A stretch of DNA of 64,000 nucleotides, taken from Candidatus Magasanikiibacteriota bacterium. GTDB taxonomy: Bacteria; Patescibacteriota; Patescibacteriia; Magasanikbacterales; UBA922. A program made the position numbers and the translations under genes. Below are positions 14,538 to 57,499 of the stretch, in pieces. The notes under the pieces were generated by a model, which saw only the letters and a program-made list of their open reading frames with translations, did not search any database and was not told the DNA's origin. Positions within the stretch are counted from its first letter, which is position 1, and each line of letters begins with the position of its first letter. The stretch is taken from NCBI GenBank assembly GCA_018650645.1, contig JABIFP010000020.1:82529-146528 (forward strand), given 5' to 3'.

Positions 14538-15074
14538 TCAGCCCGTGAAGGTGACCAGCCGCGCCGCGATGTCGGCAAGCTCGAGGATCTCCACGGACAT
14601 GTCCGTCAGACTGCCCACCGGCACCAGGACCGCATCGTAGCCGATGATCCGGTTCTGGTCCTTCTGGAGCAAGTGCGAAAGCGCCCACACCTCACCGTCG
14701 ACGACGAAGTTTCCGCTCTCATCGACCGTGAACTCCTTCTTCTGGAAGACGATCCAGTGGGTCAGGCCCGCGCGGTGGACAACCTTGCCATCCTTCACGC
14801 AGATGAAGCCAGCGATCGCTTCCGCAGGCATGGCCGACTCACCTTGCCCGTTGTAGTACGTGACCCCTTCCGGGCACACCAGGCGAAGGGTCGGCTCGGC
14901 GTCGATGATGGGCGCGCCGTACGCGCCGTTCTTCAACTGGTAGAAGAGGTTCTGACCATCTTTCCCCGGGTTGAAGAAGTTGTAGCTGTCCGCCTCGTAG
15001 GTCATGGTGGTCTTGCTGTCCCCCACGACTGCGAACTCAAACACCCACTGACCACAGGTGATTTTCACCTTCAT
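14538..15074 (-). CDS. Compositionally foreign (high-G+C) hypothetical protein of 178 aa (MKVKITCGQWVFEF...); function unknown
   Basis: Strong G/C bias at third codon positions, unlike the neighbours. Consensus SD AAGGAG 6 nt before the ATG at 15074. Own terminator. The supplied 206-aa ORF extends upstream of the SD-supported start. Confidence 0.6.
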   Translation of the reverse strand: MKVKITCGQWVFEFAVVGDSKTTMTYEADSYNFFNPGKDGQNLFYQLKNGAYGAPIIDAEPTLRLVCPEGVTYYNGQGESAMPAEAIAGFICVKDGKVVHRAGLTHWIVFQKKEFTVDESGNFVVDGEVWALSHLLQKDQNRIIGYDAVLVPVGSLTDMSVEILELADIAARLVTFTG

Positions 15075-15105
15075 CTCAAACTCCTTAAGTCGTGCTCTCC
15101 ACACC

Positions 15106-15135
15106 CAAAAAACAGGCGTAGATACACCTGTTTTA
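15106..15135 (-). terminator. Hairpin plus T-run on the minus strand, downstream of the 15162..15947 gene
   Basis: ACAGG-TGTATCTACG-CCTGT followed by TTTTTT on the minus strand. It lies between the stop at 15162 and the SD of the foreign gene. Confidence 0.4.
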
Positions 15136-15161
15136 TCAAAAAAATCCCTATTTGTCAACCC

Positions 15162-33243: not shown

Positions 33244-35526
33244 TTATTTAAGTGATTGAATTTTTTTCTTAATGTCTTCGTTCTCTGGATTTAATTGTAA
33301 TACTTTTGTATAAAATTCGATTGCCTTTGGCTTATTCCCTATACGTTCCGCAGCAATTCCTAAACTAAACAGTCCGTTTGAATGGTCTGGATGCGTATCC
33401 ACAAGTGCAAGCCACATTTCTATCGCTTTCTGCATTTGATCGCGCTCTCCTGTATTATACAACACTCTGGCATATTGGTATGTAATATCAACATTCCCTG
33501 GCACAAGTGAAGAGGCTTTTTCATATTGTTTTACCGCCAACTGAAACTGCTCTAGCCGTTCATAAATATCTCCGAGTGCCGCGTACGCCGAAACAAATTG
33601 TGGATGCAATTGAATAGCCTTTTCTAGCGTGGCCTTTGCTTCAGCATCTTGTTGCGAATCAATATGAATAAGGGCTTTTCGCCAATAGAGCTGTGCATTT
33701 GTTGGGGCAAGGGCAATGGCGCTATCAAGTTGCTGCAAGGTATGTTCATCAGCACCCGTCGTAAATAATCGAGCATTGCTATACATCGTAGCGAGTGTAT
33801 CCCAAGAAGTATATGAAAGCGGATCAAGTGTTGTTGCACGCTTTGCTTGATCAACAGCATTTGCCATAGCAAACGTAAACTCGTCTGTAATAGTATCTTC
33901 TTTTGAAAGTGCCCTTGCGTATTGCAAATAGGCATCAGCAAGCGACGCTCTATACGGTCCATATGCAGGACGCAGCTGTGTTGCTTTATTCATATGCTCA
34001 ATCATTTGCGGTGCAGACGCAGCATGAAGTCCTGCTGTTGCTTGTGATTCAGCAATAATATGCCGAATACCAAATGCAGCAGAAATTCCAAGCGCAGTAA
34101 CAATAGAAACAAACAAGAAACTGACTAAAAATGAATCCTTCAGCTCAGCCGATACAGAAATTTCTTTTACTTGGTCGAGTCTTTTTGTGTGCATGGCAAA
34201 GGCAACGCACATCATAAACAGAAGCCACCACCAGAGCATCCAAAGTGCAGCTCCCAAAAAGGAAACAAACATACCAATAGTAAGGACAAGCCAAGCAGCT
34301 CCAAGCGCAACAGCATGTAATTGTTCTGGGTGAATCTTGCGCGCGGTTTTAGTAATAACACGCCCTTTCCGTGCATTTATGTCACTAATTCCAGTTACCA
34401 AAACTCCGCTCCCTAAAAGCACCACAAATAATAAGGATAGCGCTCCCACAAAACCAAGTTCAACAAATAGTGCATGCACTGTGCTATATGGCTGCCAAAA
34501 TATTCTATCTGCAAACGCTTCTAATCCATTAAACGCATGTGGTCTATATAATGAAAATGCATATCCAAACGATGCAGGCCCATTTCCAATGAAAAATGTA
34601 GAAACGTCCTTGAGCAGTACTTGCTGCGTAATTTGTGTAGAAACGCCGTTTCCAAGTGTTAGCTCTGCAGGCAAGTCGCCTTTCAACATATTGGGCGTTC
34701 CTGCTACAGCAAAAGCAATAGAAGAAGCAATAAGTAGTACACCAATAGCTCGCACCCACTGCACGACATCGTCATGCTGCCAAGCAGAAAGCACCACAAT
34801 CGATACAGCAAACGCTACGAGTATATATAAGTACGGAAGTGCAATACTCACAACCGCAAGACAGTGCAGGATAAGTGCTACTACAGCAAACATGCGTGCC
34901 CACCAAGAAAGCGTCCTGTGCATGGCAAAGGCAAGTGTAATTGGTATAACAGCAACAATCCATAGTCCGAGTACAGACGCAAACTGTGTCAGTACATTTA
35001 CCGCGCCACTGTGCGCCCAAGGAATATGTGTTGGTGCATACAAAGAAATAACAAAAAATGCACTTACAATACCCGAAATCCCAACCAGAAGTGCAATAAA
35101 CCTATGCAGTACATGGCCGCGCGCGGCATGCTGAGCGCTCATATATCCAAAAGCAATCGCCCCAAAGATACTCGCAAGAGATAATCCAAATACTTCGGGT
35201 TGCCCAAGTATACCGTGAGACAAATTACCTGAAAGCACCCATGCAAGAAGAGCAACTACCAAAAAAATAAGTGCAGCCGCATCAACGGGTGTTCTGCGTA
35301 ATTGAATTTTTTTTACAACTAATACGCGAGCGCCAAATATGAGCGCAGCAAGCATGGCACAAAATACGACAAGCAATACTTTTGGCAACGTATGTGGATC
35401 TCTTAGCCCAGGAATATGAAGTAATATTCCACCAATTAACCCAACACCAAGAATAGCAATAGCACCCGAGCTAAGGGCGCTACTGATTGCTGTTCGTTTT
35501 GGACGAAATAATGATGTGCGCTTCAT
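33244..35526 (-). CDS. Polytopic membrane protein with C-terminal TPR repeats (O-antigen-ligase/Wzy-like architecture possible)
   Basis: About 450 aa of TM helices followed by TPR-like repeats (AYAALGDIY..., ...AIEFYTKVLQLNPEN). Confidence 0.45.
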   Translation of the reverse strand: MKRTSLFRPKRTAISSALSSGAIAILGVGLIGGILLHIPGLRDPHTLPKVLLVVFCAMLAALIFGARVLVVKKIQLRRTPVDAAALIFLVVALLAWVLSGNLSHGILGQPEVFGLSLASIFGAIAFGYMSAQHAARGHVLHRFIALLVGISGIVSAFFVISLYAPTHIPWAHSGAVNVLTQFASVLGLWIVAVIPITLAFAMHRTLSWWARMFAVVALILHCLAVVSIALPYLYILVAFAVSIVVLSAWQHDDVVQWVRAIGVLLIASSIAFAVAGTPNMLKGDLPAELTLGNGVSTQITQQVLLKDVSTFFIGNGPASFGYAFSLYRPHAFNGLEAFADRIFWQPYSTVHALFVELGFVGALSLLFVVLLGSGVLVTGISDINARKGRVITKTARKIHPEQLHAVALGAAWLVLTIGMFVSFLGAALWMLWWWLLFMMCVAFAMHTKRLDQVKEISVSAELKDSFLVSFLFVSIVTALGISAAFGIRHIIAESQATAGLHAASAPQMIEHMNKATQLRPAYGPYRASLADAYLQYARALSKEDTITDEFTFAMANAVDQAKRATTLDPLSYTSWDTLATMYSNARLFTTGADEHTLQQLDSAIALAPTNAQLYWRKALIHIDSQQDAEAKATLEKAIQLHPQFVSAYAALGDIYERLEQFQLAVKQYEKASSLVPGNVDITYQYARVLYNTGERDQMQKAIEMWLALVDTHPDHSNGLFSLGIAAERIGNKPKAIEFYTKVLQLNPENEDIKKKIQSLK

Positions 35527-35535
35527 ATAAGCAAA

Positions 35536-37767
35536 CTACGAATCAAACCGAATCACATTATTTGGAGAAAGTTGTGTTGGACCGTCAGATGTTTTTTCTG
35601 GCGCTACAGCTGGCTGCGCTGCAGGTGTTGCCGCTTGCTCTACCTGTGGAGAGGGCTGTGACATATCACCACTTCCTTCTCCTGTTTTCTTTTTTCTTCT
35701 TCTGCGACGTTTTCTTTTTTTCTTTGGTGGATTGTTTTCATCAATAAAAGGAGAGCTAGCAGAAGGAACAGATGCTTCGGCGGGTGCATGTGCTACTTCC
35801 GCAGTTTCTTGTAAGATTTCTGGCACTACGGGTTTTGCTGCAGGAATTTCTGGTGTAGGTGATTCTTTAGGTACCTCTATTTTTTCTTTAACATCCGCTG
35901 CCGTCGATATTGCAGGCTCATCTTTTACTACCAGTTTTTCCTGGACGACTGGCACTTCCTTCACAACTGGCGGTACCGGCATTTCTTTTACCACAGGTAC
36001 TATAGGTTCTTCTTCCCAAAGTAATGGCTCAGTTGCCTCAAGAACCTCTGGTTTTATCACCACGTGAGCTTCTGGAGCAGGAGTGATTTTCCCGACGTCT
36101 AGTGCACTCGGTTGCTCAGCAGCATCGAAAACCTCTTCTTTAGCGGGAGTAGGTGCTGGTGCTGGTGTAGCAACGGCAGCAATTGGTTCAGGTTTCTTTT
36201 CTGCCACTGGTTTATTTTCAACAGTCGATTTTTTCTCGGTTCTTGGTGTCTCTTCTCTTCTCGGTTTATTTTCTGAAGGTCTATCTGATCGTCTATTATC
36301 AGATGGCTTATCTGATCGTCGTTTTTCTGAAGGTCTATCTGATTGTTTAGTATCAGACGATCTATCTGATCGCTTATTGTCTGACGATCTTTTTCTATCA
36401 TCTTTTTTCTTTTTGTCGATGGGCGGCAATACATCCTCATCTTTTTCATCGCCAAAACCACTCCAACGCATAATTTTCTCTTCGATTTCGGCTCGTTTTC
36501 TTCCGTATCTTTCTCTTGAAACACGAATTACCTTTTCTGCTGAACCTGTTGGAGAACCAATTGGTGGCAATGTCAGTGCACTAAATGGCTGAGAAGCAAC
36601 CCCATCAATCATAAGTTTGAGTAAAATTTGGTATTTTGCCAAATTTACAATATCTTCTTCCATAAAAATAGGCGCATACTCTTTTGCCAACGATTCAGCA
36701 TCTGATGCCCCCACACGGAAAGATATAATAGTTCCAACATTACCAAATACAGCATCAGCAACCACTTCGTCTAACTGCGCAACATATTGATGCGCCATAA
36801 TAAGACCCAAATGATATTTACGCGCCTCAGAAAGAATATTGGCAAATGACGGTGTCGCAAAGTTTTGGAATTCATCTACATACAAGAAAAAATCTCGTCT
36901 ATCTTTTTCTAGCATATCAACACGCTCCATGGCAGAAAGCTGCAACTTGGTAATGAGCATTCCACCCAAAAGCCGCGAGTTATCTTCCCCCATTCGCCCT
37001 TTAGAGAGATTCATGATCAAAATTTTCCCGTCATCCATTGCCTTTCTTACATCAAACGTTGATTTTGGCTGCGCAACCATGTTTCTAATCAGTGATGCAG
37101 ATAAAAATTGCCCAATCTTATTTTGAATAGGAGCAACCGCTTCTGTCGCATATTTTTCTGAATATCCAGCAAACTCAATCTGCCAAAAACTCTTTACAAC
37201 CGGATCATTCGTTCCTTTAATCAATTTTCTTCTATATTTTTTATCTGACAACAATCGATTAATTCCAAGGAGTGTTGTTCCTGGGTTATCTAATAATACT
37301 AGCAGCGTATTATTTAAAATGTATTCCATTCTAGAAGACCATACGTCTGGCCAAATCTTTTTAAATGTTCCCATCATTCCTGCCGCAACAAGATGTTTCT
37401 GCTCTTCATTATATACTTCCAAAATATTAAACCCGATTGGATTTGATAAATCAGCTGGATTCACATAAATCACATCATTCATGCGCCAACTTGGAATGTA
37501 ATCAATAATTTTTTCTGCAAAATCTCCGTGAGGATCAATAAGTCCTACACCATGTCCATTATAAATATCAGAAAGCATCATGTTTTCCATCATGGTACTT
37601 TTTCCCATTCCTGTTTTTCCAATAATGTAACTGTGTCTGCGCCTGTCATCGATTTTAATACCAAACCGTCTCATCTGGTTTCTATAATTGGTTTGCGCAA
37701 ACAAACAGATCTCATTAGGATCTGGTGCAGGGGCTTCGTCTTGCTTCAGTAAATATGGAGCTGGCAT
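35536..37767 (-). CDS. P-loop ATPase of the TraG/VirD4/HerA (DUF87-like) type with a long disordered, repeat-rich, charged/Pro-rich C-terminal tail ending in a poly-basic stretch
   Basis: Walker A IIGKTGMGKST; Walker-B-like FFLYVDEFQ; no TM segment. The tail has RSD/KPSD and PVV/KEV repeats and KKKRKRRRRRKKK. Confidence 0.5.
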   Translation of the reverse strand: MPAPYLLKQDEAPAPDPNEICLFAQTNYRNQMRRFGIKIDDRRRHSYIIGKTGMGKSTMMENMMLSDIYNGHGVGLIDPHGDFAEKIIDYIPSWRMNDVIYVNPADLSNPIGFNILEVYNEEQKHLVAAGMMGTFKKIWPDVWSSRMEYILNNTLLVLLDNPGTTLLGINRLLSDKKYRRKLIKGTNDPVVKSFWQIEFAGYSEKYATEAVAPIQNKIGQFLSASLIRNMVAQPKSTFDVRKAMDDGKILIMNLSKGRMGEDNSRLLGGMLITKLQLSAMERVDMLEKDRRDFFLYVDEFQNFATPSFANILSEARKYHLGLIMAHQYVAQLDEVVADAVFGNVGTIISFRVGASDAESLAKEYAPIFMEEDIVNLAKYQILLKLMIDGVASQPFSALTLPPIGSPTGSAEKVIRVSRERYGRKRAEIEEKIMRWSGFGDEKDEDVLPPIDKKKKDDRKRSSDNKRSDRSSDTKQSDRPSEKRRSDKPSDNRRSDRPSENKPRREETPRTEKKSTVENKPVAEKKPEPIAAVATPAPAPTPAKEEVFDAAEQPSALDVGKITPAPEAHVVIKPEVLEATEPLLWEEEPIVPVVKEMPVPPVVKEVPVVQEKLVVKDEPAISTAADVKEKIEVPKESPTPEIPAAKPVVPEILQETAEVAHAPAEASVPSASSPFIDENNPPKKKRKRRRRRKKKTGEGSGDMSQPSPQVEQAATPAAQPAVAPEKTSDGPTQLSPNNVIRFDS
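36240..36400. repeat. In-frame ~27-nt tandem repeats (GGTCTATCTGATCG...-like units) encoding the R/S/D/K-rich tail repeats of the ATPase
   Basis: At least four consecutive units visible: tctatctgatcgtctattatcagat / ggcttatctgatcgtcgtttttctgaa / ggtctatctgattgtttagtatcagac / gatctatctgatcgcttattgtctgac. Confidence 0.6.
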
Positions 37768-38885: not shown

Positions 38886-39980
38886 TTATGTTTGCTTACT
38901 CACATTAACTACAAGCCCAGCTGCTAATAAAGCAACCATCAGCGCCGTTCCTCCGTGCGAAACAAATGGTAGTGGGACTCCGGTCATTGGCATAATGCCA
39001 AGCATGGAACCGATGTTGAAAAAGGATTGAGAAATAAACCAAATGATAACCCCAAGCACCAGAATGCGCCCAAAATCATCAGCATGTTTTGCAATACATA
39101 TTGCTCGCCTTGCTATGATGAGTAAAAACACAATCATGAGCGAAGAAATAATAACACCCATTTCTTCTGCAATGATAGCAAAAATACTATCTGCGTGCAC
39201 CTCTGGTAAATACGCATGCTTTTGCCTTGAGTGCCCCAAACCGCGGCCCATCCATCCTCCAGAACCAACCGCTACTTGCGCCTGCAAAATATGATACCCA
39301 GAAGTATCTAAATGCTCATTTGGATTTAAAAAGGTTGTTAACCGCTCGGCTCTATATGGTGCAATGATAATAAGCACCGCCAGTGCGGCTATGGCTAACC
39401 CAAATAGTGCCGAAAGATGACTCATTTTTGATCCTGCTACAAACAGTACACCAAAACAAATCGCAAACATAATTGCCGCAGAACCCAAATCTGGCTGGAG
39501 GAGAATAAGCCCCACAGGAAGTAATCCTAAAAGCAATATCGGTAAAAATCCATGTTTAAAATCCTTTATTTTTGGACCGATTTTTGCGCCATACCATGCA
39601 AGCGCAAGAATCATGCCAACCTTTGCAAGCTCAGCAGGCTGAAAAGAAAATCCAAATAATGAAATCCAGCTTTGCGCTCTAGTACCATAATCTGCTCCAA
39701 TTCCTGGGATGAGGACGAGTGCCAGCAATAAAAACGAAAGCCCCGCAAACACCGGCGCGTACTTCTGTAATTTTTTATACGGAAATTTAGAGGCAATCAC
39801 AAACAGTACTACCCCCGGAATAGCACCAAATAGTATCTGCCGCGTAATGAAGAAAAACGGATTATCAAATCGATTTACAGAACTCGCTGACGTAAGCATG
39901 ACAAGCCCAAACAACAGAAACAAAAAAATATACGATAAAAACGTATAATCAGTTCCTTTTGATTGCGCTCTTTGAGTCAT
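38886..39980 (-). CDS. ftsW: SEDS-family peptidoglycan glycosyltransferase FtsW/RodA
   Basis: 10-TM protein with the conserved C-terminal PFVSHGGTALM motif. Confidence 0.85.
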   Translation of the reverse strand: MTQRAQSKGTDYTFLSYIFLFLLFGLVMLTSASSVNRFDNPFFFITRQILFGAIPGVVLFVIASKFPYKKLQKYAPVFAGLSFLLLALVLIPGIGADYGTRAQSWISLFGFSFQPAELAKVGMILALAWYGAKIGPKIKDFKHGFLPILLLGLLPVGLILLQPDLGSAAIMFAICFGVLFVAGSKMSHLSALFGLAIAALAVLIIIAPYRAERLTTFLNPNEHLDTSGYHILQAQVAVGSGGWMGRGLGHSRQKHAYLPEVHADSIFAIIAEEMGVIISSLMIVFLLIIARRAICIAKHADDFGRILVLGVIIWFISQSFFNIGSMLGIMPMTGVPLPFVSHGGTALMVALLAAGLVVNVSKQT

Positions 39981-39981
39981 A

Positions 39982-40338
39982 TTATACGTTCAAAAAGACC
40001 AGAAGCAATGAAATAATGAGAACGAACAGTTGGCACAGTGCTGCCCCAAAAAGGAGGACATATGAGGCAAATCGATCCTTTTGAAATAATTCTGCTGCAA
40101 AATAGGTGTTAAGCCCGATTATGAGTATCCCCACCGCGGGAAGTACAAATACGGTATGCCAGGCACCTGTAAGATCTACCCCAAATAGGACGGTATAGTG
40201 TAAAAATAAGGCCTCTTCTGTTGGGCGAATATGCCAAAGCAGCCATCCCCAGGCAAAAAGGTTGCAAAGCGATGCGATTCCAACTAAAATAATCACCTGT
40301 GGCCGCCGAAAAAAGAGTTTCACGTTAGAAAGTTGCAT
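39982..40338 (-). CDS. Small membrane protein (3 TM), unknown function
   Basis: Hydrophobic segments; 1-nt gap to ftsW. Confidence 0.4.
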   Translation of the reverse strand: MQLSNVKLFFRRPQVIILVGIASLCNLFAWGWLLWHIRPTEEALFLHYTVLFGVDLTGAWHTVFVLPAVGILIIGLNTYFAAELFQKDRFASYVLLFGAALCQLFVLIISLLLVFLNV

Positions 40339-40401
40339 GAGTGTACAAAATTAGCCAATTCTTGCTAAATATCCCTGTTATTATACTCCACAGCGCTCTT
40401 C

Positions 40402-40430
40402 TTGACAACATCGGCTCTAGAGCGTATAAT
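40402..40430 (+). promoter_or_regulatory. Consensus sigma70 promoter TTGACA, 17-nt spacer, TATAAT upstream of rpmA
   Basis: Exact -35 and -10 hexamers with a 17-nt spacer, about 70 nt upstream of the rpmA ATG. Confidence 0.6.
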
Positions 40431-40499
40431 GGCCCCACTATCGCAGGCTTACCTTAATCTGGTTTGCTCCTGTGCACCATTTCTATTAATTGAGAAGAT

Positions 40500-40775
40500 A
40501 TGGCTCATAAAAAAGCCGGTGGTTCAGCGAAGAGCTTACGCGACTCGAATCCACAGTACCTTGGTACCAAAGTTGGTGACGGACAAACTGTTCGCGCTGG
40601 AATGGTGCTTGTACGACAACGTGGTACAAAAATCCGCCCGGGACAAAATGTAAAAAAAGGAAAAGACGATACCCTTTATGCTGGAACAGCTGGAGTGGTA
40701 AAGTTCAGCAGTAAAAAGATGCGTCGATTTGACGGACGCCTCAAAATGGCAACATTTGCAAACATCGAAGCGTAA
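40500..40775 (+). CDS. rpmA: 50S ribosomal protein L27 (stand-alone, no adjacent rplU)
   Basis: [30 protein letters not shown]-terminus. Confidence 0.9.
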
Positions 40776-40784
40776 GCTTTGTAG

Positions 40785-40816
40785 AAAAACTACTCGTATG
40801 AGTGGTTTTTTTGTTG
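40785..40816 (+). terminator. Intrinsic terminator after rpmA (A-run, ACTACTC-GTAT-GAGTGGT, T7), copy 1 of a 32-bp direct repeat
   Basis: Hairpin plus TTTTTTT. The identical 32-mer recurs at 41809..41840. Confidence 0.6.
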
Positions 40817-40870
40817 TGCTTGTAAAAAATCTTTGATATGATATGGGTATTATTTCACTAATGCATCTTT

Positions 40871-41794
40871 ATGGAAGGAATTGTTCGCGAACAGCCCAAG
40901 GCACCACTTAGCCTGGAACAGCTTCAAGGAAAGACAGGATATGAGTTAAAGGGCCTTGCTACTGAGCACAAAGAAAATCCTGCGAATCTCTTCTGGCAAT
41001 TAGTTGCAGCCTCAGATGAATCTTCACTACACCGCAGATTTCCTCTTTCACTAATGGAACACGCAACACATTTGCTTCCCGACGGAAAAAAAGTTTCTGG
41101 GTTTGGAAATAATGACAGCGCAAGAAGAGCCTATTCTGAATTGCTTGATCGGGCCATGCCTGGTTCTGGTCACGATACAAAAAGTATTAGAGCTGAGGAT
41201 CCAAATCATTTTCCAGGTGATCAAAAATACTTGCCCCGATTAGGTAAATATACAAGAACTGAGCAGTTATTTGCAGGAAATCTAGTGTGGACTAGCAAAG
41301 CCCAAGATTTACGTGCGAGAGCCAATATTAAGCGAGGTACTGATACTGCCTCTGCTGCGGAAAAACTGGCAGCACAAGCTGAAAGCAATATACAAGAAAT
41401 AGATGAAACTCTTGGTACAGATGCAGGATCCTCCATTACGCAAGCCCTTGCAAAAGCTACTGAGCTTGCAGTATCACCGCGCAGTGAGCGAGACGTGATA
41501 CAGGCAAGCAGAATATTTGAGCATATTTCTCATACACTGACAGGGGCAATCAATTCTGACTTTGATTACGATGCTGCCCCGGGAACAACTCTCAAAAAGC
41601 ACCCTAAAGATCAGCTGAAAGACGCACTGTCAAAAGAGTGGCTTACTCAAGCCTCTGCTGGAACTACACAGACTGAACAATTACATTCAGCGGCTGAGAT
41701 AAGAGATGCACTGTTTGTCCTTGCAAAAGCACTTGACCAAAGAAGCCTTCAAGGACGAGATGGATTAACAGCTGAAATTGAACAAGCTACATAG
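40871..41794 (+). CDS. Hypothetical soluble protein (307 aa, hydrophilic, no TM or signal peptide), bracketed by the duplicated terminator
   Basis: Complete ORF. Composition slightly more G+C-rich than the host by eye. No recognisable motif. Confidence 0.5.
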   Translation: MEGIVREQPKAPLSLEQLQGKTGYELKGLATEHKENPANLFWQLVAASDESSLHRRFPLSLMEHATHLLPDGKKVSGFGNNDSARRAYSELLDRAMPGSGHDTKSIRAEDPNHFPGDQKYLPRLGKYTRTEQLFAGNLVWTSKAQDLRARANIKRGTDTASAAEKLAAQAESNIQEIDETLGTDAGSSITQALAKATELAVSPRSERDVIQASRIFEHISHTLTGAINSDFDYDAAPGTTLKKHPKDQLKDALSKEWLTQASAGTTQTEQLHSAAEIRDALFVLAKALDQRSLQGRDGLTAEIEQAT

Positions 41795-41808
41795 TCTTCA
41801 CAGATTCA

Positions 41809-41840
41809 AAAAACTACTCGTATGAGTGGTTTTTTTGTTG
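41809..41840 (+). terminator. Second copy of the 32-bp rpmA terminator (direct repeat) after the 307-aa gene
   Basis: AAAAACTACTCGTATGAGTGGTTTTTTTGTTG identical to 40785..40816. Confidence 0.6.
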
Positions 41841-41869
41841 ACAGAAACAGTAAATAGCCGTAGAGTCTA

Positions 41870-42295
41870 GTGAAACACGAACTCTTGAGGGATTCCATGC
41901 GAAATGTGCTATGGACGGCTCTCTTGATTGCCGTCTTTCGATTTGTGACGTATTCACAAGACCTACCTGAGGTACTGTTCTTTGCGGCTTCCTTTGTGGT
42001 CGTCATGCAGAGGATCCTCTATGAGGTGCAGCGCTCGGCAGAGTCGAAGAAGTATCAACGGTGGGCCATCATTGGTAGCTGGTATGTTCAAAACATCAGC
42101 GCCATGGCGGTGATCCTGGCGGCGATCGCCGGGCTCGGACACTGGGTGAACTTTGTGGACGGCCGATCGAACAGTGAACCCGACCCCGTGCCGCTCGCGC
42201 TGCTACTCCTGCTGTGCGTCGTCGGCCTGGCAGGCTTTCTGTCACTCGACCCAACCAACCCAACCAGCCACCTCGGTGGCAAGGAGGACAACTAG
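41870..42295 (+). CDS. Compositionally foreign (high-G+C) small 4-TM membrane protein; start is GTG 41870 or ATG 41897
   Basis: G+C-rich codons; four hydrophobic helices. GAGGGA precedes ATG 41897 by 4 nt. Own terminator directly after the stop. Confidence 0.5.
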   Translation: MKHELLRDSMRNVLWTALLIAVFRFVTYSQDLPEVLFFAASFVVVMQRILYEVQRSAESKKYQRWAIIGSWYVQNISAMAVILAAIAGLGHWVNFVDGRSNSEPDPVPLALLLLLCVVGLAGFLSLDPTNPTSHLGGKEDN

Positions 42296-42296
42296 T

Positions 42297-42324
42297 GGGC
42301 CGCGCATGCGGTCCTTTTGCTTTT
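42297..42324 (+). terminator. Intrinsic terminator GGGCCGC-GCAT-GCGGTCC followed by TTTTGCTTTT
   Basis: 7-bp stem with one G-U pair, tetraloop, and a T-rich tract immediately after the stop at 42295. Confidence 0.55.
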
Positions 42325-42342
42325 ACGCTATACTATAGTCCT

Positions 42343-42798
42343 ATGAAATATTATATCCTTCTTTTAGCCATTTTCTTTACCTTTGGGTTTGGCTGTACAA
42401 AAACAGTAGCACCAACATATACACCTCCTGAGGGACAGGTGCACATTGATCCGCAAGAACAGGTAACGCTGGAAGGTTACCTTTCAGCATCCAACCAAGC
42501 AGCAGGAAAAACGCTCACTATTGATGAAGTACAAGTATCAAAGCATGCGTGGATTGCTATTTATGCTTCTGATAAAAACAGACCCGGCAAAATATTGGTA
42601 GCGACAGCCGTGTCCCCTGCTGACCGTGGTCCCGTTGCTATTGCATTACCAAACTCTTCAACCGTTGGCGAAATGTACTATATTCTCTTGCATGAAAGCG
42701 GCAGTGAACCAGGATTCAACTTTATGGAAGACGATTTTCCGAGTGATGCGACGAAAGCTACCAGTGTAGAGATTGTTGACAAGAATACACAAATATGA
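42343..42798 (+). CDS. Lipoprotein (signal peptide with lipobox ...FGFGC), unknown function
   Basis: MKYYILLLAIFFTFGFGCTK N-terminus. The supplied ORF 42214..42798 starts upstream inside the foreign gene; the ATG at 42343 gives a canonical lipoprotein signal. Confidence 0.55.
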   Translation: MKYYILLLAIFFTFGFGCTKTVAPTYTPPEGQVHIDPQEQVTLEGYLSASNQAAGKTLTIDEVQVSKHAWIAIYASDKNRPGKILVATAVSPADRGPVAIALPNSSTVGEMYYILLHESGSEPGFNFMEDDFPSDATKATSVEIVDKNTQI

Positions 42799-43107
42799 GA
42801 ACCTGTTCAGCAGGTGGGACCATTAACTCACACAGGGAGAGTAATTCAAGGAAACGCCTGCGGGAGAATTTCGCTTTTTAGAAACCCAAGGGTGACTAAA
42901 GCCTGTAAAGGTATAGCGAGAGAGCCTGGAGATTGGCGTCTAGCTCTAGAAAAGAGCATGCAGGTGAAAACCTGTAAGGTCGATGCGGTGAAATACCTCT
43001 CGGCGCATAAGATCTCCTTGCTTTAATCCTTCGAATAGGCCGGTTCGATGCCGGATGGTCCCCAATTCCCTTCCCCAGGTAGCTTGTGCTACCTGGGGAA
43101 TTTTTAT
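42799..43107 (+). ncRNA. Structured, probably non-coding ~300-nt region between the lipoprotein stop and a double terminator; candidate sRNA or structured 3'UTR of unknown family
   Basis: Multiple clean hairpins (CAGG-TGAAAA-CCTG; ATGCG...CGCAT; CCGG-TTCGATG-CCGG; 11-bp CCCCAGGTAGC-TTGT-GCTACCTGGGG). G+C above the flanks. The only ORF here (70 aa) shows no coding signal. Motifs GGAAACGCCTGCGGG and AGGTGAAAACCTGTAAGG faintly recall RNase-P-type elements, but no P4 strand is present. Confidence 0.3.
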
Positions 43108-43113
43108 ACCTCA

Positions 43114-43148
43114 TAAAAAACATCCGGTTTATCCGGATGCTTTTTATT
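43114..43148. terminator. Bidirectional intrinsic terminator (CATCCGG-TTTA-TCCGGATG flanked by A6 and T-run), preceded by a second plus-strand terminator hairpin at 43073..43107
   Basis: Perfect 7-bp stem; CTTTTTATT follows on the plus strand and a T-run follows on the minus strand. It serves the plus-strand RNA and the convergent minus-strand gene. Confidence 0.6.
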
Positions 43149-43166
43149 CCACTTTTTTTATGGTTT

Positions 43167-43541
43167 TTATTTTCTTTTAGAAGTCGACTTCTTTTGTGTT
43201 GTTTTTTTTGCCGAAGAATTTTTTTTCCGGCTTATTGTATTTTTTACTTTTTTTTCTAATTTACTGGCCAGTTTTCCAACAATAAACTTCTCAACCAGCC
43301 CGGTCATCATGGAGCTCATAACGCCCATGTTTTTGGAAACACCATCTACCTTTCCTCTCATATACTGAACGGCTTCATTGATGAGTTCAAGTTTGTGCGT
43401 GAGTGATTCTACAATGCGATTCGCGTTCTTCAAAATTCTTGCGGCTTCAAATAAAAGCCAGCAGAGAAATACTGTGAAAAATAGCACACACAGTGCAAGA
43501 GCAACGTACAACACGTCTTGACTCGAACTTACAATGTCCAT
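43167..43541 (-). CDS. Small protein with N-terminal TM helix, coiled-coil middle and Lys-rich C-terminal tail; unknown
   Basis: 124 aa; VLYVALALCVLFFTVFLCWLLF TM; C-terminus KKNSSAKKTTQKKSTSKRK. Confidence 0.4.
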   Translation of the reverse strand: MDIVSSSQDVLYVALALCVLFFTVFLCWLLFEAARILKNANRIVESLTHKLELINEAVQYMRGKVDGVSKNMGVMSSMMTGLVEKFIVGKLASKLEKKVKNTISRKKNSSAKKTTQKKSTSKRK

Positions 43542-43659
43542 AGGTCTCCTTTATAATAACAAGCGCTGTGAGTATATCATAGTTGTATACATCTGTGAAA
43601 TCTATAGACAGACCCATCTCTGCTTGCTACCATGAATATACTATTCTTATATATTCGAT

Positions 43660-44355
43660 ATGAAACATATTGTACTCCTTCTTGCTCTTGTCCTTATGGG
43701 GATGGGATGCCTATCTTCCGCAGAAACGCCCGCATCAGACACCATTAACAGCGCAACACTTCCTGTTAATGCTCAGCCGATGGCTTCTTCTACAGAAACA
43801 CCCCGACCAATAGAAGAACCAATTCCATCTGAACCCCCAACTTCTCCTCCACAAGACTTACCCGCAACACCAGTAGCTCCACCGCAAACAGGCTGCACAG
43901 AAGAAGCAAAAATGTGTGAAGATGGTACAGTGGTTGTCAGAACTGGACCAAATTGTGAATTTGAAGCCTGCCAAGATACACCTATACGTGCTTGCACTGA
44001 CGACCAACAATTCTGCGCTGATGATTCAGTACGCCCAAGAAACTTTGAAACCTGCGAATGGCTCGATTGCCCAGAAGAAGTTACGGTATCTATTTCTGTC
44101 ACAGCAAAAAATTGGGAATTTGTACCCGCACAAATCGAGGTTGAAAAAGGAAACACGGTAGAACTAAGCATCACCAGTATTGACGTTGATCACAGCTTTG
44201 CTCTTCCAGCGTTTGGTATTAATACAAAGCTCAGTCCAAACCAAACGTCAGTAGTCACCTTTACTGCTGATAAAACCGGCTCATTTCCATTTTCTTGCAA
44301 AGTCTTTTGCGGAGAAGGACATAAAGGAATGAATGGTGTGCTGATTGTAAAATAG
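43660..44355 (+). CDS. Secreted cupredoxin-domain protein with CuA-type ligand pattern (H...C-x3-C-G-x2-H-x2-M) and a Cys-rich N-terminal region
   Basis: Signal peptide. C-terminal HSFALP...FSCKVFCGEGHKGM matches the CuA site pattern of COX-II/NosZ-type cupredoxins. Eight Cys lie in the preceding ~70 aa. Confidence 0.55.
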   Translation: MKHIVLLLALVLMGMGCLSSAETPASDTINSATLPVNAQPMASSTETPRPIEEPIPSEPPTSPPQDLPATPVAPPQTGCTEEAKMCEDGTVVVRTGPNCEFEACQDTPIRACTDDQQFCADDSVRPRNFETCEWLDCPEEVTVSISVTAKNWEFVPAQIEVEKGNTVELSITSIDVDHSFALPAFGINTKLSPNQTSVVTFTADKTGSFPFSCKVFCGEGHKGMNGVLIVK

Positions 44356-44397: not shown

Positions 44398-44409
44398 TAC
44401 GTTCATTCT

Positions 44410-46815
44410 TTACCTCACCACTGCCCCAAATTTCTTTTCAACTGCAGCAACCACATGCGCGTGTTCACCATCCACTTCTTCTCCGGTAAGCGTTTTATTA
44501 TCATCCCTATACGTTACTCTGTATGCCATGCTCTTTTTACCATCAGCAATATGTTCACCTTGGTATACATCAAAAAGTTGTACATCTGTAATCATTGGTG
44601 AAACTGCAGCAATTGCTTTACGTACATCAGTATCAGCTGTGATACTCTTAACTTCAAACGCTAAATCGCGTTGCACCACTGGAAATGCCGGTAATGGTGT
44701 ATACGCAATGCGTTCATTTACAAGCGGCGCAAGTCGACTCAAGTTCAACTGCACAACCGCAGTTCTATGTGGCACACCAATCGTATCCTGCACCACAGGG
44801 TGAATCTCTGCAATTGATCCCAAATACGTATCCCCTACTTTTACAAATGCGTGACGACCACCGTGCAAATATTCTGGTGATTCATCTGCTTTTTCAAAGG
44901 TAATGGCAAGTCCCAATCGATCTGCTACATTATGCAAAACACCAGAAAGTTCAAAGAACGGTGTTTCAACGCCTTTTTCTGCATATACCAAGCCTAAATA
45001 CTCGTCTTGCCCTGGTAGCATTTCTTTTTTATCTGGATGCGCAAGTGGCCCGTCCTCTTCCGGTCGGTATCCGCGCCCCGTTTCAAACAGTCTCACTGCA
45101 TCAAATCGATGAAGATTACTTTCTACATTCACCATCATGTTTGGAATCAGTCCACGCCGTACAAACGGTCGGTCTTTTGCCAAAGGATGCGCGAGTTCAA
45201 TATAATTTTCTGTAGTAATACCAAATTTTGCAAGCCACTCCGGAGAAACAAATGAGTAGTTATACACTTCTGTGTACCCAGCTTCATATGCTAAAAGTTC
45301 TTTTACACGCTTTTTCATGTCACGCAGTGGACTTGGCGGTGTTGGACTAATGGGAAACGCTGGGAATGTTGTCGGAATATTTTTATACCCGTAACTACGC
45401 GCAACTTCTTCTGTAATATCTTCCGGAATACCAATATCTCCAGTCGCTCTCCACGTTGGAATGGTCACATATAACGTATCCTCTTTTTGCTCTACCCCAA
45501 ATCCTAAACGTGTAAGCAGCTCGCTCATGTCTTTATCTGAAATATCTACTCCAATCCGAGAACGAATTCTGTCTGCAGAAATTTCAAGCGGCCCTAAATC
45601 TTGCTCAAAAGAATGAATATCTGTGAGATTACTCACCACTTTTGCGTTAGGACATAGTTCAAGTGTCAATTCAACCGCTCGCTTCATGGCAAGTTCTGGA
45701 AGATTCGGATCAAGTCCTTTTTCAAATCGAGTTGATGCGTCAGTTCTTACCCCTAACGCAGTAGAGGTTCTTCGGACACTAAGCGCCTCAAAATTAGCCG
45801 CCTCGTACATGATACTGGTGCTTTGATCTGTTACCCCACTATCGTCTCCTCCTTTTACACCCGCAACAGCAATCGCCCGTTTCTTTTCTGTAATAAGCAG
45901 CATACTTGGTTCTAGTTCATATTCTTCCCCACCAAGTAAGACAATCTTTTCTCCTTTTTTTGCTTTTCTTACCACAACAGATGCCACATCAATAGTATCA
46001 GCATCAAACGCATGCATTGGCTGACCCAATTCAAACATCACATAGCTAGTAATGTCTACAATATTATTAATTGGACGAACCCCCACAGCAAGCAATCGTT
46101 TTTGCATCCATGTTGGAGAAGGCTCAACAGTAATACCAGAAAGCTGCACGCCCATATATCGCGGACACAGTTTCTGATCCTTCACTTTTACTTTTACCGC
46201 AGCTTCTGTTCCTTCTACAACCTCTGCCGGTGCATACGCTTTTAGTTCTGTTTTGTACATGGCAGCAAATTCACGAGCCATGCCGTAATGTCCCCACAAA
46301 TCAGGACGGTTTGTCATTGATTTGTTATCTATATCAAAAATTGTATCGTCTAATTTGAGCGCCTTGATTATTTTTGTTCCGTTTTTCACTTTGGCATCAA
46401 ACATTTGAATGCTCAATCCTTCATCTACCAAGCCTAATTCCTGATCTAAACAAAGCATCCCTTCTGATGTTTCACCACGCATTTTTGATTTGTTGATAGC
46501 AAATCCTCCAGGAAGCACAGTTGGTGCTAAAGCAACCGGTACTTTTGCCCCAACATGCATTTCAAGCTTGTTTCCAAATACAATCTGACGAGGAGATTTT
46601 TCCCCTACCTCAACCTGCGCAATATTTAGCTTCTCTGCATTTTCATGTTTTTCAATCGATAAAATTTCTCCAACAACAACTCCATCAAGAAATGCTGTTT
46701 GCTCAACAACTTCTTCAACTTCAACAGTTTGCACAGTAAGTTCCTCTAACATTTCTTCTCCTGATTTTTTTGGAAGAGTAACAAAGTCCTCAATCCATTG
46801 TTTTGAAATTCTCAT
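44410..46815 (-). CDS. pheT: Phenylalanine--tRNA ligase beta subunit
   Basis: 801 aa; N-terminal tRNA-binding region, B3/B4 and B5 domains; immediately downstream of pheS. Confidence 0.9.
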   Translation of the reverse strand: MRISKQWIEDFVTLPKKSGEEMLEELTVQTVEVEEVVEQTAFLDGVVVGEILSIEKHENAEKLNIAQVEVGEKSPRQIVFGNKLEMHVGAKVPVALAPTVLPGGFAINKSKMRGETSEGMLCLDQELGLVDEGLSIQMFDAKVKNGTKIIKALKLDDTIFDIDNKSMTNRPDLWGHYGMAREFAAMYKTELKAYAPAEVVEGTEAAVKVKVKDQKLCPRYMGVQLSGITVEPSPTWMQKRLLAVGVRPINNIVDITSYVMFELGQPMHAFDADTIDVASVVVRKAKKGEKIVLLGGEEYELEPSMLLITEKKRAIAVAGVKGGDDSGVTDQSTSIMYEAANFEALSVRRTSTALGVRTDASTRFEKGLDPNLPELAMKRAVELTLELCPNAKVVSNLTDIHSFEQDLGPLEISADRIRSRIGVDISDKDMSELLTRLGFGVEQKEDTLYVTIPTWRATGDIGIPEDITEEVARSYGYKNIPTTFPAFPISPTPPSPLRDMKKRVKELLAYEAGYTEVYNYSFVSPEWLAKFGITTENYIELAHPLAKDRPFVRRGLIPNMMVNVESNLHRFDAVRLFETGRGYRPEEDGPLAHPDKKEMLPGQDEYLGLVYAEKGVETPFFELSGVLHNVADRLGLAITFEKADESPEYLHGGRHAFVKVGDTYLGSIAEIHPVVQDTIGVPHRTAVVQLNLSRLAPLVNERIAYTPLPAFPVVQRDLAFEVKSITADTDVRKAIAAVSPMITDVQLFDVYQGEHIADGKKSMAYRVTYRDDNKTLTGEEVDGEHAHVVAAVEKKFGAVVR

Positions 46816-49708: not shown

Positions 49709-50086
49709 TTAGTTCGCCAGCCGAAGGCTAGCGATCCGCAGCATAGTACCAGCAGTCGTGTAGAGCTCCCCAAGGCGCAACTTCGAAAAGTCGACCCCAG
49801 GACGCATCGAACCACTCATAACGAGGACCGGAACAGACGAGAACCTCTCGGTAATAGCCTGTTTAAGCCAGAACCCGTTATGACGGTGCTGCATGTCGAC
49901 GTCCGTAATGACTAGATCGACACGCGTGGTCTCCATCAGCTCGAGAGCCTCTGGAGGGTTATTGGCGAAGACGATGTCAACGTCCATCACGTGCACCCTG
50001 GCCATGTAGCGCAACAAGTTGCGCCGGACCAAGATCTGGATGTTCGTTTCGTCGTCGACGACCAAAACAGTGGGCTTGTTACCCAT
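49709..50086 (-). CDS. Compositionally foreign (high-G+C) single-domain response regulator (CheY-like receiver, 125 aa)
   Basis: LVVDDE acidic pocket, the LVITDVDM phospho-acceptor Asp, and the VLVMSGS Thr/Ser position. SD AGGAG 5 nt before the ATG at 50086. The supplied ORF, extended to 50152, is not supported by the SD. Confidence 0.65.
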   Translation of the reverse strand: MGNKPTVLVVDDETNIQILVRRNLLRYMARVHVMDVDIVFANNPPEALELMETTRVDLVITDVDMQHRHNGFWLKQAITERFSSVPVLVMSGSMRPGVDFSKLRLGELYTTAGTMLRIASLRLAN

Positions 50087-50123
50087 GGTTGCTCCTCTCG
50101 TTGAGGTGCACCACGGGCTTTCA

Positions 50124-50135
50124 CCGTCGGGGGAT
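50124..50135. repeat. Right arm of the 12-bp inverted repeat, CCGTCGGGGGAT
   Basis: See 49563..49574. Confidence 0.6.
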
Positions 50136-50151
50136 AGCCCCAAGTAAACCA

Positions 50152-50415
50152 TTATTTTGACGTTTTGTCAATCCCTAAGCGCGTAATAAGTTGTTGTTTT
50201 TGTTCTTTTGAAAATTGTTTAATCTGCCACTCACGCTTAAGCGCCGCAGATCTATCCGTACATTTCTCACTATACACAAGTGTTATGGGGAGCCGCGCAC
50301 GCACATATTTGGCTCCTTTGCCTGATCTGTGCACCGCTAGCCGTGATTCTAGATCTTTTGCTATTCCTGTATATAAGCTACCGTCTGTGCATGACAAAAT
50401 ATAAACTGTGTACAT
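50152..50415 (-). CDS. GIY-YIG nuclease-family small protein (YhbQ/UPF0213-like)
   Basis: YTVYILSCTDGSLYTGIAKDLESRLAVH GIY-YIG motif; 87 aa; host-like composition. Confidence 0.75.
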   Translation of the reverse strand: MYTVYILSCTDGSLYTGIAKDLESRLAVHRSGKGAKYVRARLPITLVYSEKCTDRSAALKREWQIKQFSKEQKQQLITRLGIDKTSK

Positions 50416-50572: not shown

Positions 50573-50995
50573 CTACTGGGAAAACCTGTTCGGCGGAGGC
50601 GCCTGGGGCCTTGCCTCTTGGAGCAGATGATCGCGGAGTGCGGTAGCGGCGGCTTGCGCAGCACCGTCGATGCTCGCGGCGTCGAGCGGCCCGAGAGCTT
50701 CGGCAGCATTCTGCGCTACAAATACGCGATACGCGCCAGTGAGCGCCTCGATCTGCTCGCCGTTGAGCGGGAACTGCGCAGCGTCAAGCTCAACCTCTCT
50801 GAGCGCTTGCGTATATATATATGTTAGGAAATCCCCAACATTCCCCTCCTGCGCTGACGCCAGCTTGATCTCAGCCGAAAAGGCCTTGACCAACTCACCC
50901 TCGCAAGTGAGAACACTCCCAATTCGTTCCTCGCTGCGCTCTTCTTCAATATTACGAGCGGCCCAGACTTCTGGTACCATGTTTTCCATACCCAT
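50573..50995 (-). CDS. Compositionally foreign (high-G+C) acidic hypothetical protein (140 aa, Ala/Glu-rich, Pro-rich C-terminus)
   Basis: G+C-rich codon usage. AGGGG SD 6 nt before the ATG. A structured ~120-nt 3'UTR with a GCTCC-UUCG-GGAGC hairpin. Confidence 0.55.
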   Translation of the reverse strand: MGMENMVPEVWAARNIEEERSEERIGSVLTCEGELVKAFSAEIKLASAQEGNVGDFLTYIYTQALREVELDAAQFPLNGEQIEALTGAYRVFVAQNAAEALGPLDAASIDGAAQAAATALRDHLLQEARPQAPPPNRFSQ

Positions 50996-56818: not shown

Positions 56819-57499
56819 CTAGAGCCTGCAGCCGTTGCGAGCCACCGAGATAGCGTTCGCGAGCTTGCTTTCGACGGTCATCCTCGTCCTCTCCTCGAGG
56901 GGATAACCACCATAGTGAGCCACCTTCACGGGAGATTCATCGTGAAGGTCTACCACGATGGGAACATTCCGTGACTTGTCACCGGACGCGAGAGAAACCG
57001 CAATGATCTTTCCCTCACGGATCGTGATCTCCGGACGCTGCTGCCCCCCAGCCGAAGTCCTCAGAAGAGACATCACGTCCCGGAGAAGATCATCGCTGAT
57101 CACGATTTCCAGCTCACCGAAGGCTCCGCGGAGTTTCGCCATCACATCCAGATAGAACTCCGCTTCACGATGTAGCTGACGCAATTGCCTAAGCTCCACG
57201 TGCAGACCCGAGATGGCCTTGTGCATCGGGAGGGCATCCTCACCCCTCCGACAATGCAGCACCAGGATGCGTCCCGAGAAAGGCCCCGCGGCAATCACTT
57301 TCGGATCGCTCTGAGGGAGCATTTTCACACGCGCGCACCGCTTCCAGCTGAGAACCGTGGGTACTGGACCCACGCCAGGATACTGCACCCAGTGCTCCAC
57401 CAGCTCTTCCAGCTGATTCTCCGTGAGTTTGATCCGCTGATCCACTAGCACGTGCTGGATCGTCGCCTTCAGGGCCGCATAGAATGCCGCACTGATCAT
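56819..57499 (-). CDS. Compositionally foreign (high-G+C) hypothetical protein (226 aa); no recognisable domain
   Basis: Strong G/C bias at third positions in an AT-rich context; own terminator; AT-rich upstream region. Confidence 0.5.
   Translation of the reverse strand: MISAAFYAALKATIQHVLVDQRIKLTENQLEELVEHWVQYPGVGPVPTVLSWKRCARVKMLPQSDPKVIAAGPFSGRILVLHCRRGEDALPMHKAISGLHVELRQLRQLHREAEFYLDVMAKLRGAFGELEIVISDDLLRDVMSLLRTSAGGQQRPEITIREGKIIAVSLASGDKSRNVPIVVDLHDESPVKVAHYGGYPLEERTRMTVESKLANAISVARNGCRL

Follow-up and report, generated by a model that had tools for sequence, protein, structure and literature searches.

In the 64,000-nt stretch of contig JABIFP010000020.1 analysed here (Candidatus Magasanikiibacteriota bacterium, assembly GCA_018650645.1; called the window below), an orphan gene encoding a 307-aa protein (p307) is enclosed by two identical copies of what appears to be one complete intrinsic (Rho-independent) terminator, the first of them placed directly after rpmA. 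Comparison with a sister genome, in which the orthologous gene is enclosed by a matched pair of a different sequence, makes it probable that this terminator-gene-terminator unit is ancestral, that its two terminators have been under concerted evolution and that the unit is prone to pop-out deletion. If true, this would be a clean natural case of regulatory hairpins of about 30 nt evolving in concert, and it shows that a gene can lie between perfect direct repeats without having been inserted recently, which matters for calling mobile cassettes and for dating insertions.

The repeated terminator and the enclosed gene

The 32-nt repeat AAAAACTACTCGTATGAGTGGTTTTTTTGTTG was found in exactly two copies on the plus strand of the window, at positions 40785-40816 (R1) and 41809-41840 (R2). 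Both copies are identical in 32/32 nt and form direct repeats at the two junctions of the p307 unit, with a start-to-start distance of 1024 nt, R1 beginning 9 nt past the stop codon of rpmA and R2 14 nt past the stop codon of p307. A single open reading frame (ORF) lies between them (40871-41794, plus strand) and encodes p307. The perfect repeat after rpmA, its spacing and the enclosure of exactly one complete ORF had been described in an earlier reading made from the letters alone (the sequence-only reading) and were confirmed at these positions. The edges of the identity are sharp, with flanking bases that agree in 2/10 positions on the left and 3/11 on the right, which is the chance level.

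No further copy with up to three mismatches is present in the window, none was expected from 100 shuffles, and a window-wide repeat search revealed R1/R2 as the sole long intergenic repeat, coding repeats aside. A test for multicopy elements resembling repetitive extragenic palindromes (REP) or miniature inverted-repeat transposable elements (MITE) returned the same two copies and no others within the 64 kb. Exact scans for the 32-mer in GTDB genomes, JGI metagenome contigs and viral contigs gave zero matches, though these collections evidently lack this population and their zeros say little; the JGI contigs reached via the protein index do contain the 32-mer. The two-copy layout is the same to the last base in at least 15 independent assemblies (JGI, MEGAHIT k141 and SPAdes) of a population that is essentially clonal across samples, and therefore it is real and not an assembly artefact. 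The suspicion that R1 and R2 are merely two neighbouring members of a generic genome-wide terminator or REP-like family draws on the fact that only 64 kb of the source genome were examined. With exactly two copies in the window, none in the exact scans and the same arrangement in all of these long-k-mer assemblies, such a family, or an artefact, is hardly credible, and in the DNA that was searchable the 32-mer does not form a generic terminator family, in line with the sequence-only reading.

Each copy consists of five A (40785-40789 in R1), a 6-bp stem CUACUC/GAGUGG with one U-G pair (40790-40795/40800-40805), a GUAU loop (GTAT in the DNA, 40796-40799), a run of seven U (T7, 40806-40812) and a GTTG tail (40813-40816), and the stem is extendable by A:U pairs. 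The folding energy of the copies ranged from -12.5 to -14.5 kcal/mol, with z from -4.1 to -5.8 versus shuffled controls. The stem-loop followed by a U-tract, the position just 3' of a stop codon, which is alike for both terminators in the sister genome, and the compensatory substitutions described below are those of intrinsic terminators, and both copies would be expected to terminate transcription. The repeat was thus correctly taken at first sight for a duplicated intrinsic terminator, a copy of that of rpmA, which the unit reuses in the sense that R2 would end the enclosed p307 gene. A scan of positions 39900-43700 against Rfam gave no match at the gathering score, only sub-threshold hairpin matches. 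Like known intrinsic terminators of the bidirectional A-tract/hairpin/T-tract type, these have a short stem-loop with a run of A before it and seven T after it, are located after stop codons and keep their structure by compensatory changes between species; unlike in the known cases, the terminators of adjacent units are identical here and stay so while the pair of the sister species has drifted to another sequence.

The p307 protein is deposited as MAG: hypothetical protein HOE53_02930 [Candidatus Magasanikbacteria bacterium]. Its gene has native codon usage, with a GC content of 44.5%, a GC content at third codon positions (GC3) of 29% and a codon-usage z of 0.01 (mean of 63 window genes), and it has no Shine-Dalgarno motif, like most genes in this genome region. 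No family was found for p307 in Pfam, PHROGs, PADLOC or NCBIfam, in agreement with its first description as a hydrophilic protein without motif, and a PDB sequence profile search gave nothing above noise. In a word-indexed search, 5.8 billion proteins yielded p307 alone, and an exhaustive phmmer search of 1.84 billion cluster representatives revealed one further protein, P0002 (311 aa, 35% identity over the full length, E 4e-26), so that p307 belongs to a lineage-restricted family of two known members. The conserved blocks of the pair, E(N/K)PA(N/D)LFW around residue 40, YTR.E..FAG around residue 130 and ALF.LAKALD.R..QG..GL.AE at the C-terminus, are clear, and hence this is a real, constrained protein family. 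The AlphaFold2 (AF2) model of p307, made from the two-sequence alignment, consists entirely of helices at low confidence (mean predicted local distance difference test score, pLDDT, of 56), and a Foldseek search with it against PDB gave no match with an E value below 0.8; the profile and structure searches that the sequence-only reading had called for thus produced neither a family nor a significant fold match. Residues 117-173 showed a similarity to the helix-two-turn-helix (H2TH) region of endonuclease VIII (E 0.025, 14 bits, cut-off 252) that is a lead and not a result, and no nucleic-acid-binding domain in p307 reached any threshold. Relatives of p307 were found neither by tblastn against phage and plasmid records nor by profile-guided scans of metagenome and viral contigs, and none of the protein, phage, plasmid, viral and metagenome searches placed a copy in another genomic context.

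The terminator pair in a sister species

P0002 (p311) is encoded in contig JBGCVJ010104033.1 of assembly GCA_041294365.1 (L100). The gene order of L100 equals that of the window over at least 12 kb (MnmA, HD, two small genes, TPR, TraG-like, MurG, FtsW and p118-like genes) and continues with rpmA, p311, DUF7282 and then a p124-like gene on the opposite strand; p132, the gene that follows R2 in the window, is missing. Protein identities between L100 and the window are 93% for L27 (the rpmA product), 90% for p124, 81% for FtsW, 78% for p118, 66% for MurG, 65% for the C-terminal part of PheT, 41% for DUF7282 and 33-35% for p307, which has evolved at about the rate of its neighbour DUF7282. From this synteny and these identities it follows that L100 represents a sister species and that P0002 is the orthologue of p307 in the same slot.

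The p311 gene of L100 is also bracketed by a terminator pair, AAAATCGCCCAGCTGGGTGATTTTTTT (9909-9935) and AAAATCACCCAGCTGGGTGATTTTTTT (10963-10989), which is identical in 26/27 positions with one G/A difference. When the rpmA terminators of both genomes are compared, the stop codon, the 9-nt spacer, the A-tract, the T7 run and the following GTT can be aligned and only the stem-loop differs, and the bases after the second terminator copy (ACAGTAAA) are common to the window and L100. The spacer beside the rpmA terminator pair has diverged to a similar degree as the pair. The four hairpins (two per genome) align without gaps and adopt one common structure, in which 2 of the 12 predicted pairs have changed on both sides (C-G<->U-A and U-A<->C-G) and 2 on one side through G-U, and no pair of the 6-bp core is broken in any of the four, which come from two independent lineages only.

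Over the 16-nt stem-loop, the window pair matches in 16/16 positions and the L100 pair in 15/16, with 7-8/16 between genomes; over the 27-nt core, the corresponding matches are 27/27, 26/27 and 18-19/27. Paralogues within a genome are therefore more alike than orthologues between genomes whose positional orthology is shown, which is the pattern of concerted evolution. If the copies had been simply inherited, those of each genome would differ at least as much as the orthologues, and this is not so, which indicates that they have been homogenised repeatedly in each lineage. Either the duplicate terminators and the gene were present in the common ancestor of both species, or the arrangement originated on two occasions at this one site. 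Identity extends over 32 nt in the window, GTTG included, and over 27 nt in L100, and such differing edges would fit separate homogenising events. The GTT tail is found after the rpmA terminator of L100, is not found after the second terminator of L100 and is present on R2 of the window; because this tail is ancestral at the rpmA position, its presence on R2 suggests that the last copying event in the window may have run from R1 to R2.

A different cause of the identity within each genome would be selection, if both hairpins were RNA or DNA recognition sites of one sequence-specific factor, possibly p307 itself, with the protein and the hairpins co-evolving in each species. The repeat does span exactly the functional hairpin with its tracts and nothing else, the fast-evolving p307 and the hairpins change together between species, and the very weak similarity of residues 117-173 to the helix-two-turn-helix region points the same way. 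However, p307 has no nucleic-acid-binding domain at any threshold and its structure was modelled at low confidence only, a G/A difference between the two terminators is tolerated in L100, and selection alone cannot shift two sites in step, so that a copying mechanism would still be required. We consider this explanation rather unlikely.

Under concerted evolution of an ancestral unit, p307 would have become established behind rpmA before this species and its sister species split. Transcription of rpmA would start at a consensus promoter (40402-40430) and stop at R1, and p307 would be promoted separately from a promoter abutting R1 and form its own unit ending at R2, each repeat copy being a terminator that abuts the next promoter (that of p307 after R1, that of p132 after R2). 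R1 and R2 would recombine together, and a change fixed in one copy would pass to the other, presumably by short-tract gene conversion, by unequal sister-chromosome exchange followed by loss of the extra unit, or by hairpin-assisted template switching. The same recombination could delete the 1024-nt unit, leaving one copy.

A single-copy junction and the history of the slot after rpmA

Twenty-four contigs encode exactly this L27, and 18 of them are occupied by the p307 unit, 5 end at or near the repeat (4 of these from Logan) and 1 is single-copy. In this last contig (L010, Logan SRR7617950_76733, 8.1 kb), rpmA is joined to p132 via one repeat copy with flanks that are 100% identical, and the contig corresponds to the exact one-copy pop-out product of the 1024-nt unit. 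The empty site proposed as a check by the sequence-only reading has thus been found, with the predicted single-copy junction, in one contig, a k=31 assembly in which a graph artefact is possible. The Logan contigs L012 and L016 end at window position 40814 and start at 41811, respectively, each 30 nt into the repeat, which means that the repeat breaks that assembly graph; this length equals k-1 for a Logan assembly at k = 31, the value that we assume. L010 could be a true deletion allele, with the loop absent or rare in the sample, or the result of clipped loop fragments in thin data. The former is more likely, because the loss of both loop entries by chance in an 8-kb gap-free contig is improbable, given how we understand the assembler to behave. 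A second look-up with short flanks, aimed at p307 in SRR7617950, listed other samples only. Since p307 is ancestral to both species, as indicated by L100, L010 is best read as a recent repeat-mediated deletion and not as an ancestral empty site.

In engineered circuits, a gene placed between two identical terminators is known to be open to loss by recombination (Sleight et al., as cited in PMC8546616). These circuits share with the present locus the layout of terminator, gene and identical terminator and the one-terminator product, which matches L010; unlike them, the natural locus has been retained in two species and its putative deletion allele has been seen once, in a k=31 assembly. This synthetic-biology precedent was the only one found in the literature on duplicated or identical terminators. 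The persistence of p307 in two species despite a deletion-prone layout would imply selection to keep it, that is, a functional orphan; as a naturally pop-out-ready orphan kept in two species of an uncultured lineage of the Candidate Phyla Radiation (CPR), it argues for function.

The closest species representatives by FtsW are metagenome-assembled genomes of Magasanikbacteria with 53-56% identity, and the databases hold no relative in the range of 65-99% FtsW identity other than L100, so that the clade is represented there by two species only. In the Magasanikbacteria with 53-64% FtsW identity, the block from murG-ftsW-p118 to rpmA is conserved. In six of these loci (L022, L055, L102-L104 and L105), rpmA is followed directly by a gene for a membrane protein of 268-294 aa that contains the motif HELxH and matches Peptidase_M50 below threshold, after which L022 and L102 carry a DUF7282-cupredoxin fusion; in L101 a homologue of this M50-like membrane protein is located farther downstream. 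No p307 homologue was found in the more distant Magasanikbacteria loci (tblastn, E 1e-4), no twin terminator around rpmA in five of them, and no M50-like gene was detectable in the window or L100. So, judged from these gene orders, p307 would have displaced the M50-like gene before the two species of the clade separated, and the terminator was presumably duplicated in connection with that event. A derivation of p307 from the M50-like slot gene was rejected, six-frame tblastn with four such proteins against the window and L100 giving no match at E 1e-2. The slot after rpmA is a tractable place for studying gene turnover in reduced genomes.

The sequence-only reading had explained the repeat by a cassette that entered the rpmA terminator through site-specific or illegitimate insertion and duplicated its attachment sequence. 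Taken as a recent event, such a one-gene insertion would have left the 32-bp repeat as its attachment or target site in two copies, perfect because still young. The perfect repeat with its sharp edges, the single-copy junction of L010 with fully identical flanks and the absence of p307 from all the more distant Magasanikbacteria examined are what such an insertion would leave. It is nevertheless very unlikely, and already largely refuted by L100, where the orthologue occupies the same slot between its own different matched pair in a species whose FtsW is only 81% identical. Moreover, the GC content, GC3 and codon usage of p307 are native, by contrast with p132 (z -2.76), no integrase, transposase or recombinase domain is present in the unit or in its neighbours rpmA, p132 and DUF7282, and neither p307 nor the 32-mer turned up a second time in the searches of phages, plasmids, viral contigs, metagenome contigs and GTDB genomes. 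What stands of the proposed insertion is a lineage-restricted gene and an old event at that slot; the recent cassette-insertion scar does not.

A mobile cassette family aimed at terminators, of which divergent p307 members were inserted independently in both species, either turning the local terminator into a long target duplication or integrating in the Campbell manner as a circle that carried this terminator, would produce identity within genomes and difference between them without any gene conversion. It would account for repeat lengths of 32 and 27 nt, for the low identity of p307 (35%, against 65-93% for neighbours) and, with L010, for a possible empty allele, and with p132 a further foreign gene has entered at this place. 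It would require, however, two independent insertions at exactly the same site and in the same orientation, and about 15 billion proteins contain no pool of such cassettes. The neighbour DUF7282 is equally fast-evolving (41%), so that the 35% of p307 need no special origin, and p307 itself is fully host-like in composition, carries no recombinase signature and is predicted to be all-alpha. Known transposases do not typically duplicate as much as 27-32 bp of their target. On balance we regard this as unlikely, and only if it were true would the locus raise a major new question. A still more specific proposal, that hairpin-p307-hairpin is a minimal excisable terminator-targeting cassette whose hairpins are co-evolving recombination or recognition sites, with p307 as a new hairpin-specific DNA/RNA-binding or recombination factor and L010 as a genuine excision product, is quite improbable.

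Known mobile systems resemble the unit in part. Class C group II introns insert after intrinsic terminators, and terminator-targeting retroelements, like integrative elements that duplicate their attachment (att) site, can leave direct repeats around a lineage-specific gene at a terminator; unlike in these, no integrase, intron RNA or reverse transcriptase is found here, and the unit is single-copy, native in composition and orthologous in the sister species. Insertion sequences of the IS200/IS605 type likewise carry two similar subterminal hairpins in the same orientation around one ORF, with an element-specific hairpin sequence, but the present unit is single-copy and has no HUH/Y1 transposase (PF01797) or TnpB domain and no conserved His-hydrophobic-His motif, and its left hairpin is the orthologous rpmA terminator. 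An integron gene cassette was also considered and rejected. An attC site is an imperfect palindrome of about 57-141 nt with RYYYAAC/GTTRRRY cores at the cassette end, and the hairpin core of 16 nt and the ends AAAAAC and GTTGTGC/GTTGACA misfit this consensus.

Concerted evolution of dispersed or tandem paralogues by gene conversion is classically known from bacterial rrn operons and tufA/tufB, where they are likewise homogeneous within a genome and diverged between genomes; unlike there, the converted unit would here be non-coding, about 30 nt long and present in two copies 1 kb apart, with a mechanism that is only proposed. Several points weigh against concerted evolution of an ancestral unit, which we still hold to be the probable explanation. 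The concerted pattern comes from two pairs, from the only two genomes of the clade in the searched databases. The stem of the DUF7282-p124 terminator (43121-43139) is fully conserved between the window and L100, so turnover of the rpmA pair has been comparatively fast. A length of 32 nt is near the lower limit for RecA-type exchange, and conversion between repeats as short as these would have to be postulated. Finally, L010 is the sole contig with the apparent deletion and comes from a k=31 assembly, and other Logan contigs break off exactly k-1 = 30 nt into the repeat.

Neighbouring genes and further features of the locus

The TraG-like gene, murG, ftsW and p118 are encoded on the minus strand of the window, and rpmA, p307, p132 and DUF7282 on the plus strand; beyond DUF7282 follow p124 (minus), a cupredoxin/COX2-like gene (plus), and pheT and pheS (minus). 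The rpmA gene (40500-40775, plus strand) encodes the 91-aa ribosomal protein L27 (Pfam PF01016 Ribosomal_L27, E 8.2e-31). Between it and p118, divergent overlapping promoters of the sigma-70 type were located at 40380-40430 by a promoter scan, TTGACA-17-TATAAT for rpmA (40402-40430, plus) and one for p118-ftsW-murG (40408-40380, minus), with consensus matches of 12/12 and 11/12, so that both strands come close to a perfect TTGACA-17-TATAAT, and this divergent pair is kept in L100 (9504-9554). A putative p307 promoter, TTGTGC-17-TATGAT (40814-40842, plus), has its TTG inside the 3' end of R1; it was read from the sequence, lies below the scan threshold in the window and aligns with TTGCCT-17-TATCAT of L100, which was flagged by the scan. 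Upstream of p132, a promoter-like TTGACA-17-TAGAGT (41838-41866, plus, 10/12 consensus) begins with the last three bases of R2. The assignment of promoters to the ends of R1 and R2 is thus a tentative one.

The 5' untranslated region of rpmA (40431-40499; L100, 9555-9623) contains 46 nt at 100% identity to L100, versus about 76% genome-wide, and is also alignable to L101 and L022. RNAalifold predicted a hairpin at about 40451-40484 with 4 pairs changed on both sides, which has no Rfam match and is a candidate L27 leader element in Magasanikbacteria. Among the regions upstream of 16 start codons, the Shine-Dalgarno motif is mostly absent, and a TATAAT-like hexamer is located at or a few bases before the ATG of murG, ftsW, DUF7282 and the COX2-like gene, an arrangement suggestive of mRNAs with a very short leader or none at all. 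Beside murG, a 743-aa gene product resembling TraG/VirD4-type coupling proteins (TrwB_AAD_bind, TraG-D_C) is encoded at about 34650-36900 (L100, 4738-6894), and a TraG-like gene beside murG is present also in more distant Magasanikbacteria.

The p132 gene occupies 41897-42324 of the plus strand including its terminator, with the coding sequence at 41897-42295 (alternative GTG start at 41870, giving 141 aa) and its own G+C-rich terminator at 42297-42324. It encodes a predicted ORFan membrane protein of 132 aa and is foreign-looking, with 57% GC, 71% GC3 and the codon z given above, versus a genome of 42% GC, and with a GAGG Shine-Dalgarno unlike host genes. No homologue was found in 5.8e9 proteins. 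The p132 gene lies outside the repeat unit and looks like the genuinely recent insertion at the locus. Counting p132, the window contains five short high-GC islands; the other four (14538-15158, 49709-50152, 50573-50995 and 56819-57499) have 52-63% GC in 400-nt windows and each correspond to about one small ORF (206 aa, a 147-aa receiver-domain protein, 140 aa and 226 aa), three of the four having no Pfam family. These islands may be single-gene acquisitions from high-GC donors; a common origin was rejected, the proteins being mutually unrelated.

The right-hand neighbour of the slot is the DUF7282 lipoprotein-like gene (42343-42798, plus strand, Pfam PF23951), which is syntenic in L100, L022 and L102. 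Between DUF7282 and p124, about 300 nt of non-coding DNA within 42799-43140 are missing from L100, and this spacer contains a hairpin with a 13-bp stem (43071-43100) that gave a sub-threshold match to Rfam NsiR1 (E 7.6e-4). The cupredoxin/COX2-like gene (43660-44355) is a separate gene in the window and is absent between p124 and pheT in L100; in L022 and L102-L104 the cupredoxin/COX2-like domain is fused to DUF7282 in one protein of 307-328 aa. In the JGI contig Ga0233439_10004428 (L002, 5280-5294), 86 nt are missing at the 3' end of pheT (window 44407-44492), with a PheT call of 818 aa. The gap is bounded by short imperfect repeats (TTTTATTA..TCAT) and is either a deletion variant that arose through microhomology or a difference between assemblies, the population being clonal in other respects.

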